Shown here one piece after another: positions 14,510 to 15,922 of a stretch of 64,000 bases of DNA. The number at the start of each line of letters is the position of its first letter. Within the stretch, counting starts at the first letter, position 1. This DNA is from Schmidtea nova (Eukaryota). The notes under the pieces were generated by a model, which did no database searches, was not told the DNA's origin, and worked only from the letters and a program-made list of their open reading frames with translations. Made by a program: the position numbers and the translations under genes. The stretch spans positions 277,078,001 through 277,142,000 of the forward strand of contig CM097882.1 of NCBI GenBank assembly GCA_044892505.1. Reading direction: 5' to 3'.

Positions 14510-15922
14510 CTACTCTAACCATCCTTTCGTTGACTTCGTGTTCATCACTGTTGTACTTGCTTTCTTTTCGATCTCCAACTCTACATATAAGTTGTCGTCG
14601 TACAACATCTCCCACATTGTTTGGTGTGGTATGAATTTTGGTTCTCCAGTCGCTAATGAACATTCTGTGGTTGGTCTTTTGTAAGCTTCGTGCTTACCAT
14701 CAATTTTGAATACTCTCGCTATTGTTTCTTTCGAGTTTCTCACTCTCATTATAGCCTTTGTTTCTAGTGGCCATTCTAATATGTCGTCGTAACCACCTTT
14801 ACACAACGCAAAGAATAATGACACATGCGTTTCCTTTCCTGATCCATCTCCATTTGGATAAATTCTCATTCGAACTTTGTATCCATTTTTCCACAGATAA
14901 AATGGTGGACTTGTTACCGACACTTGACTTCCGGCTTTTGCTGCTGTGAACTTTTCGTTGAAGTTCTTGATTTTCCATACATATGGTGCAACAGGTAAAC
15001 TCTCGATATCCTCTGTATCTCGTATCCACATTTGATGTCGCACGTTTACTTCTTTTACTAGCGTCTCTATGACTTTGATTTTCTCCATCATTTTCTCTCT
15101 GGTGAGCTCGAATTGCTCTCTTGTTTCTAGTAACAGCTCCGTCATTATTCTCTGAGATTCGATTTCTTTTCTCAGCTTCTGTATGGTTTGTTCCATTCCG
15201 TTCAAATTTGCTGTTAACATCTCGGCGTGTTGTACCGTTTCTGTTTCTAAATGTTCTTTCATTTCTTTGCTCGTTTTCTTTACTACGCATCCTTGTTTAC
15301 TCCATACGCACTTTCTTGGTCTTGATTCGCACTGTTCCCAATGTTCTTTCAACCTCACCTCTTCTCTGGCTCCACAATTACTTGGACAAATTCCTCTGAA
15401 TTTTCCGCACACTTTCTCTTCTGTTACATTGAGATGTTCTGTTTCGATTATCTCTCTTGTCTCCCTTTGTTCGCAGTATTGACACTCTATTATCTCTGAT
15501 TTGCACTCATTCTTGTGACCTTTCGACTGCTTGATGGTTATTGTCTGTTGACACTTTTCACATATCGCTTTCTTGTTTTCGCATTTCCCCAGATGTTGTC
15601 TTAACTCGATTATTTGTCCCTTCCATTCACAGGGTTGGTTTATACATTCTGTTTTTATTTTCCAGATCTCCTTTTGTATTGCTTTGTCTGGTTTCGTCTC
15701 GTTGATTAGTAGTTTATCGTCACACTCTGGACACTTTCTTGTCTCACTTTCACTGATTATTTGCAATATACACTTGGTGCACATCCTGCATCCACATTCG
15801 GTTTGTCTCGGTTTTAACAGTAGATTTTTACACTTTACACACGTCACATTTACTCCCCATTGTCGATTTTCTCTTCTTAGAATCTCGATGGTTTGGTAAT
15901 CTGCTTCACTTTCTGCTCTCAT
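14510..15922 (-). CDS. TRAF-family protein (RING, TRAF zinc fingers, coiled coil, MATH), intronless
   Basis: RING CVKC...CGCRMCTKC...CPEC, repeated C-x-C...H-x3-C fingers, and MATH motifs YVWKIKNF, SPPFY, GYKVRMRIYPNGDGSGKETHVSLFF, YDDILEWP. Confidence 0.95.
   Translation of the reverse strand: MRAESEADYQTIEILRRENRQWGVNVTCVKCKNLLLKPRQTECGCRMCTKCILQIISESETRKCPECDDKLLINETKPDKAIQKEIWKIKTECINQPCEWKGQIIELRQHLGKCENKKAICEKCQQTITIKQSKGHKNECKSEIIECQYCEQRETREIIETEHLNVTEEKVCGKFRGICPSNCGAREEVRLKEHWEQCESRPRKCVWSKQGCVVKKTSKEMKEHLETETVQHAEMLTANLNGMEQTIQKLRKEIESQRIMTELLLETREQFELTREKMMEKIKVIETLVKEVNVRHQMWIRDTEDIESLPVAPYVWKIKNFNEKFTAAKAGSQVSVTSPPFYLWKNGYKVRMRIYPNGDGSGKETHVSLFFALCKGGYDDILEWPLETKAIMRVRNSKETIARVFKIDGKHEAYKRPTTECSLATGEPKFIPHQTMWEMLYDDNLYVELEIEKKASTTVMNTKSTKGWLE

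Follow-up and report, generated by a model that had tools for sequence, protein, structure and literature searches.

Giant Ty3/gypsy retrotransposons of planarians have been described as Burro elements, represented by Burro1-4/GYPSM1 of Schmidtea mediterranea and a Burro-like element of Dugesia tigrina (PMC6431247). These are around 30 kb in size, with an internal region of up to 25 kb, a polyprotein of approximately 5,000 aa in which env lies in frame between gag and pol, and ankyrin repeats. Their recorded cargo includes a MATH_TRAF_C domain in GYPSM1/Burro1, found as a separate accessory ORF in D. tigrina, and the same account lists BIR and BCL2-like motifs for S. mediterranea Burro and proposes an interference of the elements with the apoptosis and ubiquitination of their host (PMC6431247). 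Burro1 is also reported to carry B-IAP, an IAP consisting of BIR and RING whose function was tested (Lee et al. 2026, Dev Cell, as related in PMC13465017) and which, according to the same second-hand source, protects stem cells. Burro1 RNA rises on knock-down of piwi (PMC8532177).

Planarians also encode TRAF2-like proteins of their own, such as Dugesia japonica TRAF-2-like A (P0007), Dendrocoelum TRAF-2, -4 and -5, and Smed-TRAF-2A/B (PMC7586133), and the TRAF/MATH repertoire of S. mediterranea is expanded, having been counted as 121 domains (PMC6109357) or as 282 contigs (PMC7586133). RNAi directed at host TRAF raises cell death in these animals (PMC7586133). Among mobile genomes, host-derived TRAFs are known from DNA viruses, namely ORF111L of ISKNV and its megalocytivirus relatives (PMC3352826). 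For retrotransposons, there are few known cases of a complete signalling adaptor carried as cargo and kept by selection.

The window studied here, a stretch of 64,000 nucleotides from Schmidtea nova, was originally predicted to contain a complete, intronless TRAF gene captured by a retroelement. The carrier is a young, planarian Burro-type Ty3/gypsy element of 29,445 bp, in which an internal region of 22,849 bp is enclosed by two LTRs of 3,298 bp each; these are 100% identical and have the ends TG..CA. Its main features are as follows:

35320 to 38617, minus strand: 5' LTR, 3,298 bp (LTR comparison)
16488 to 31385, minus strand: polyprotein of 4,965 aa (ORF, Pfam)
9173 to 12470, minus strand: 3' LTR, identical to the 5' LTR (LTR comparison)
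9169 to 9172, with the other copy at 38618-38621, no strand assigned: 4 bp target-site duplication GTCG (sequence)

Within the polyprotein, Pfam identifies a gag zinc knuckle, env, protease, RT, RNase H, integrase and ankyrin repeats, the env being a mononegavirus-type fusion glycoprotein (E 4.8e-68) that is in frame and precedes the protease, RT, RNase H and integrase; MATH is absent from these 4,965 aa by Pfam. The TRAF lies between the two LTRs, downstream of the gag-env-pol frame, where the accessory genes are arranged in the order orfA, TRAF, orfB/C and orfD. With Burro, to which it was likened by the published description, the element shares a size near 30 kb, a single frame of about 5,000 aa with in-frame env, ankyrins, MATH_TRAF_C cargo and a planarian host; its families are labelled A-E here and not by the Burro1-4 names. 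BIR and BCL2-like domains, which are listed for S. mediterranea Burro, had no Pfam match at E 0.01 in the ORFs scanned. A difference is that the relevant text of PMC6431247 names MATH_TRAF_C only, with the accessory ORF upstream, whereas here a whole gene of RING, five fingers, coiled coil and MATH is found downstream, in five families. TRAF-domain cargo of Burro has been in print since 2007/2019, and what may be new is the full-length, selected TRAF gene; the literature searched contains no description of one in Burro elements, though other Burro accounts or the Repbase entry may already have one. The case resembles that of B-IAP, as a host cell-death gene captured by Burro, but the gene is a TRAF rather than an IAP. 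A cellular gene adjoining the element was also considered and rejected, the TRAF being inside the LTRs and at an equivalent place in five families.

A G-rich stretch at 35290-35319 (minus strand), a few bases past the 5' LTR, resembles a tRNA-Pro primer-binding site; no tRNA gene was found within the window. Two ORFs of about 200 aa lie within one LTR (9555-10136 and 10311-10946, minus strand) and are repeated in the other, in neither case with a Pfam match. The Burro copy itself interrupts the pol of a small gypsy element (8446-9186 and 39548-41458), whose own LTRs, at 7846-8076 and 41774-41998, are 97% identical.

The TRAF gene is a single frame of 470 aa from ATG to stop, running from 15922 to 14510 on the minus strand, and can be divided into these parts:

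14510 to 15922, minus strand: TRAF accessory gene, 470 aa (ORF, Pfam, PDB matches, AlphaFold2)
15722 to 15841, minus strand: RING, aa 28-67, all-cysteine (CGC), a form common to host triclad TRAFs (Pfam, alignment)
15227 to 15646, minus strand: five TRAF-type zinc fingers, aa 93-232 (Cys/His pattern, alignment, ligand counts)
15011 to 15238, minus strand: predicted coiled coil (TRAF-N), aa 229-304 (AlphaFold2)
14570 to 14983, minus strand: MATH/TRAF-C, aa 314-451, with an altered receptor groove (Pfam, PDB matches, residue comparison)

This order, within a protein of 470 aa, is the TRAF2/3/5-type arrangement. Pfam matches were obtained for MATH_2 (aa 314-451, E 4.3e-27) and, under the curated cut-off, for TRAF3_RING (aa 28-67, E 1.4e-4) and zf-TRAF (aa 170-224, E 4.9e-5), while matches in the PDB were to the MATH domains of TRAF5/3/2/1 and the RING-zinc regions of TRAF6/2/5. 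An AlphaFold2 model based on a 32-row alignment had a mean pLDDT of 89.7 and a pTM of 0.49, with the RING at pLDDT 93-97, a single long helix over aa 229-304 and the strands of the MATH sandwich over aa 314-451. The frame, Pfam, the PDB and AlphaFold2 bear out the prediction of a complete TRAF with its modules in canonical order. Giant-virus TRAF-like proteins were among the structure neighbours. As in ISKNV ORF111L and its relatives, a mobile genome here carries a host-derived protein with RING and TRAF domain, but the viral proteins belong to DNA viruses, are of 296 rather than 470 aa, represent a separate capture from fish-like TRAFs and are pro-apoptotic (PMC3352826).

The original prediction had also drawn attention to the reading CGC in the RING, as the possible mark of an altered ligase or a decoy. 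The reading is real: the ligand set can be read directly as the eight cysteines C28, C31, C43, C45, C48, C51, C64 and C67, with CGC at aa 43-45, and the RING is in this respect a lineage variant, departing from the C3HC4 (CGH) form of TRAF2/3/5-type RINGs. Its interpretation as a change specific to the element was rejected. CGC is present in all four host TRAFs with a whole RING (L115, L117, L120 and L121; a further one, L116, has no whole RING in frame) and in Dendrocoelum TRAF-2, -4 and -5, and among 120 database TRAF matches CxH was found in 103, CxC in six, three of which are echinoderm TRAF3-like proteins, and no pattern in 11. Because the host triclad TRAFs and the named Dendrocoelum proteins carry it, CGC is inherited; the aligned RINGs mark it as a triclad trait kept by the element and not a lesion, in which the cysteine may still act as a zinc ligand. 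C45 is invariant in all 63 family-A copies with a match (70 loci examined), and the RING and zinc ligands as a whole are almost invariant among copies of this family.

The host TRAFs L115, L117, L120 and L121 have AT-rich flanks without a match to the accessory cassette, only short element fragments being present in the approximately 10 kb on either side, and in each of them a single open frame of 448-486 aa covers everything between the RING and the MATH, both included. Host TRAF L035/L115 is 70% identical to D. japonica TRAF-2-like A. With the planarian TRAF2-like genes the element TRAF has in common its domain order, five fingers and CGC RING (P0007 being without the RING part), as well as the single-frame coding region of the host copies found; it differs in being only about 30% identical, A-rich, changed at P449, S453 and C469 in TRAF2 numbering, and present in more than 100 mobile copies. 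In a 32-row mixture-model tree, rooted on ten CGH TRAFs and including families A-D of the five, the element TRAFs formed one clade (99/99), joined by the two proteins P0003 and P0154 (100/98) and nested together with the TRAFs of the host, Dugesia and Dendrocoelum in a clade of 21 rows (98/96), with the caveat that the element rows do not pass the make-up test and that three rows have long branches. A quick 38-row tree agrees with this one. No TRAF paralogue sister to the element clade was found in this genome, the nearest rows being P0003 and P0154. In its make-up (42% A, GC3 of 0.39) the element TRAF matches the polyprotein, host TRAF genes having 32-37% A.

The nesting of the element proteins among triclad TRAFs supports the prediction that a retroelement took up a TRAF of its host, and one old capture from a flatworm TRAF2-like gene is likely from these sequences. 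The absence of introns had been taken to indicate capture of an mRNA. The frame is indeed intronless, but as the nearest host TRAFs are also single open frames, this is not proof of such a route; capture through RNA is plausible for a retroelement. The genome search scores exon by exon and is thus better at finding genes without introns; host TRAFs that do have them may have escaped it. The host TRAFs are located in two clusters, at G000:C2 452.92-453.00 Mb and 416.82-416.83 Mb, in which each gene has a single-frame coding region and some copies are broken.

When the genome was searched with the TRAF, the 90 matches scored of 3,349 candidates were all full length, at 94-100%, and 86 of them had no stop. 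This match set is biased, and copies were therefore picked by their integrase instead. Of 22,134 candidates 150 were scored; 114 of these had an identity of 94% or more and make up family A, and the other 36 were at 90-91%. A full TRAF, defined as at least 420 of the 470 aa (which takes in L103, at 436), was present in 102 of the 114 family-A copies; five had a partial gene and seven none within 10 kb. A listed TRAF match lay at the expected place in 80 of the 114, and the remaining 34, which were examined individually, comprised 11 open, 11 full length but broken, five partial and seven without. In at least one of these seven, L102, a TRAF is listed 17 kb further along, probably displaced beyond an insertion. 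All these copy counts are lower bounds.

Selection was estimated from the window copy and those 22 of the 34 individually examined copies that cover the gene, that is, from poorer-than-average TRAF matches. Changes shared by at least two copies (73 N, no stop, 153 S) differed from private ones (173 N, 16 stop, 143 S; Fisher P 1e-8), and gave a shared dN/dS of 0.11-0.17, depending on transition weight, which was equal over the RING-fingers, coiled coil and MATH; the corresponding values were 0.10-0.14 for the ankyrin region and 0.02-0.03 for the integrase. These figures supersede a set of the 30 best protein matches, which favours intact copies (single changes 65 N, 1 stop, 70 S; shared 39 N, 123 S). 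Families B-E were found by genome searches with other TRAFs, and all five families keep the gene at an equivalent place with equivalent neighbours, the proteins being 45-77% identical; dN/dS between families is 0.09-0.29, at a dS that is near or partly at saturation.

A passenger capture without function was to be expected, according to the original prediction, if selection were relaxed or the gene missing from most copies. The TRAF is instead under purifying selection and retained by the large majority of integrase-picked copies. That 12 of 114 copies are without a whole gene within 10 kb, and that one TRAF-less deletion form occurs twice, might be cited in support of a passenger, but this explanation was rejected as having next to no probability, as dN/dS is far below one both within and between families, no stop is shared, the frame stays open across 45-77% identity, and most copies and five families retain the gene. 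It is almost certain that a TRAF was captured by the retroelement and came under selection. The recurring deletion form consists of L099 and L105, which are on different contigs, 94% alike, and have one common deletion removing most of the TRAF; a TRAF-less form has therefore probably spread at least once, which argues against a role in cis and for action in trans. In six copies (L087, L096, L099, L103, L105 and L109) the 3' LTR is divergent, at 71-77% to that of the window over part of its length, and there are internal deletions in the accessory cluster, with breakpoints common to L099 and L105.

The explanation we favour, which taken as a whole is about as likely to be right as wrong, is that the gene supplies a spliced, trans-acting TRAF subunit that modulates survival or immunity. 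A Burro-type element would have captured a flatworm TRAF2-like gene once and kept it as a selected accessory gene, expressed through a spliced subgenomic mRNA from an acceptor directly before the TRAF ATG. The protein would trimerise via its coiled coil and MATH, either with itself or in mixed trimers that include host TRAFs, its RING-finger scaffold being intact and its changed groove shifting the choice of binding partner. Acting in trans, alongside the IAP-type RING and ankyrin cargo, it may tune TRAF signalling such that the host cell is kept alive, or the immune response low, while the element replicates.

As the TRAF lies behind a 15-kb frame, it needs its own message, and a candidate signal is found next to its start:

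15924 to 15929, minus strand: TTGTAG, a putative splice acceptor by its likeness, with its end 1 nt ahead of the ATG of TRAF (sequence)

TTGTAG stands 1-3 nt ahead of the start codon of TRAF in each of the five families, and TTRYAG occurs 1-3 nt ahead of two of the 571 ATGs in the internal region, the contexts of TRAF and orfB fitting. Four contig sets, which resemble genomic DNA and are uninformative on splicing, were compared over 9173-17500 and 15320-35319, and no intron-type ends at the TRAF acceptor were seen among the joints listed (15 of 19 and 15 of 52). The conserved signal makes expression by splicing or trans-splicing likely.

The receptor groove was compared using the TRAF2 residue numbering of PMC7215387, placed on the frog TRAF2 row. 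The element MATH keeps F410, F447, D450 and G468, but P449 is replaced by I, the S453-S455 triad by H-E-A, C469 by E, L432 by M and F456 by Y, and overall the TRAF2 receptor-binding hot spots 1 and 2 (F410, L432, F447, F456, C469; S453-S455) are not matched. Also kept are R393, Y395 and D399, in the polar pocket. P449 and S453 are present in all four host TRAFs, whose residue at 469 is a small one; the groove positions of families B-D are different from those of family A in turn. The change is not unique to elements, as the S453 and C469 positions are altered in Dendrocoelum TRAF-2 and -5 too. Within family A the element residues H411, E412, A413 and E427 show no variation across 58 of 58 copies, yet they differ between families. 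The serine triad and C469 positions are needed for binding Px(Q/E)E tails (PMC7215387), and the element TRAF is likely, judging from these substitutions, to have an altered choice of partner.

The same replacements would suit a dominant-negative decoy, joining host TRAF trimers via its coiled coil and MATH, unable to grip receptor tails and so blocking signalling. A model of a mixed trimer with two element chains and one host chain gave weak support, scoring 0.47 against 0.02 for the best control, with at least 69% of contacts recurring between runs and a partner pLDDT of at least 76, but because solved TRAF trimers exist, this pass may come from likeness to them. Of 78 solved pairs 51 reached the mark, as did 2 of 108 mismatched ones, but with scores of 0.60 or below it was reached by only 5 of the 78 solved pairs and by all 4 of the mismatches that passed. 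A decoy is nonetheless unlikely: the CGC on which it was based is inherited from the host lineage, the RING and five fingers, neither of which a pure decoy would need, are under constraint equal to that on MATH, and loss of host TRAF kills cells (PMC7586133), a cost to the element.

Another reading is a retargeted ubiquitin ligase, with the altered MATH groove binding a host restriction or silencing factor that the RING marks for degradation. The near-invariant RING and zinc ligands of family A, the RING-zinc dN/dS of 0.11-0.17, the groove residues fixed at 411-413 and 427 in all 58 copies yet specific to the family, and the second RING gene riding in the leader are all consistent with such a role. 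Many active RINGs use a hydrophobic residue in the first zinc loop for E2 contact, and TRAF2-type RINGs are often weak ligases. In the alignment, this E2-contact residue is absent from families A-C; we consider a ligase rather unlikely.

Besides the TRAF, the element carries these other accessory ORFs:

34313 to 34771, minus strand: 152-aa accessory ORF in the leader, whose C-terminal part is a RING of IAP type; no BIR found (Pfam, PDB matches)
16014 to 16364, minus strand: orfA, 116 aa, of no family, strongly conserved (ORF, Pfam, selection counts)
13274 to 14420, minus strand: orfB/C, coiled-coil-like (ORF comparison)
12675 to 13199, minus strand: orfD, 174 aa, with a hydrophobic stretch resembling, by eye, a membrane helix (ORF)

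The top PDB matches of the leader RING were cIAP2, cIAP1 and XIAP, and 142 of the 150 scored genome matches of this ORF were at 80% identity or more, mostly as open frames; it is a possible partner of the TRAF. The small orfA is found in all five families and has a shared dN/dS of 0.03-0.04, nearly the constraint on the integrase. In the window copy orfB/C consists of two overlapping frames, forming one ORF in 19 of 30 copies, and its C-terminus, ETDV (ETLV in family C), looks to us like a class I PDZ-binding motif. A more far-reaching version, which we hold to be rather doubtful, is that TRAF and IAP-type RING form a two-part module taken from the host TNFR/Toll core, spliced from one RNA and with a groove re-cut in each family, hundreds of copies of which would supply working TRAF subunits that set planarian stem-cell survival and form part of the reported TRAF/MATH expansion.

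Against a role in survival stands the virus-borne TRAF ISKNV ORF111L, which promotes apoptosis. Were the element protein a pro-death or release factor of the same kind, it would aid the spread of enveloped particles, and a fusion glycoprotein is indeed encoded by the element; ORF111L, which has both a RING and a TRAF domain, is a binder of TRADD and sets off caspase-8 apoptosis (PMC3352826). Such a role is highly unlikely, however, as a genome-inherited element at well over 100 copies gains little from killing its cell, the other cargo is IAP-like, and the TRADD-contact positions P449 and S454 are changed. Since the sister cargo B-IAP is reported to aid regeneration, and the animal is tractable to RNAi, the 2019 proposal linking Burro to apoptosis and ubiquitin is directly testable for the TRAF. 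The counts of the planarian TRAF/MATH expansion may include element-borne copies.

Elsewhere in the window are a separate small retroelement with gag, RT, RNase H and integrase (3702-7150, minus strand) and a Tc1/mariner-type DDE transposase (52129-53187, minus strand). The motif TGTAAATA occurs about 15 nt past stop codons in all five families, for example in the spacers 14421-14509 and 15923-16013, and is also found past the stop of host TRAF L115; candidate roles are those of a splice donor, of a polyadenylation element and of a 3' UTR site of the Pumilio type.
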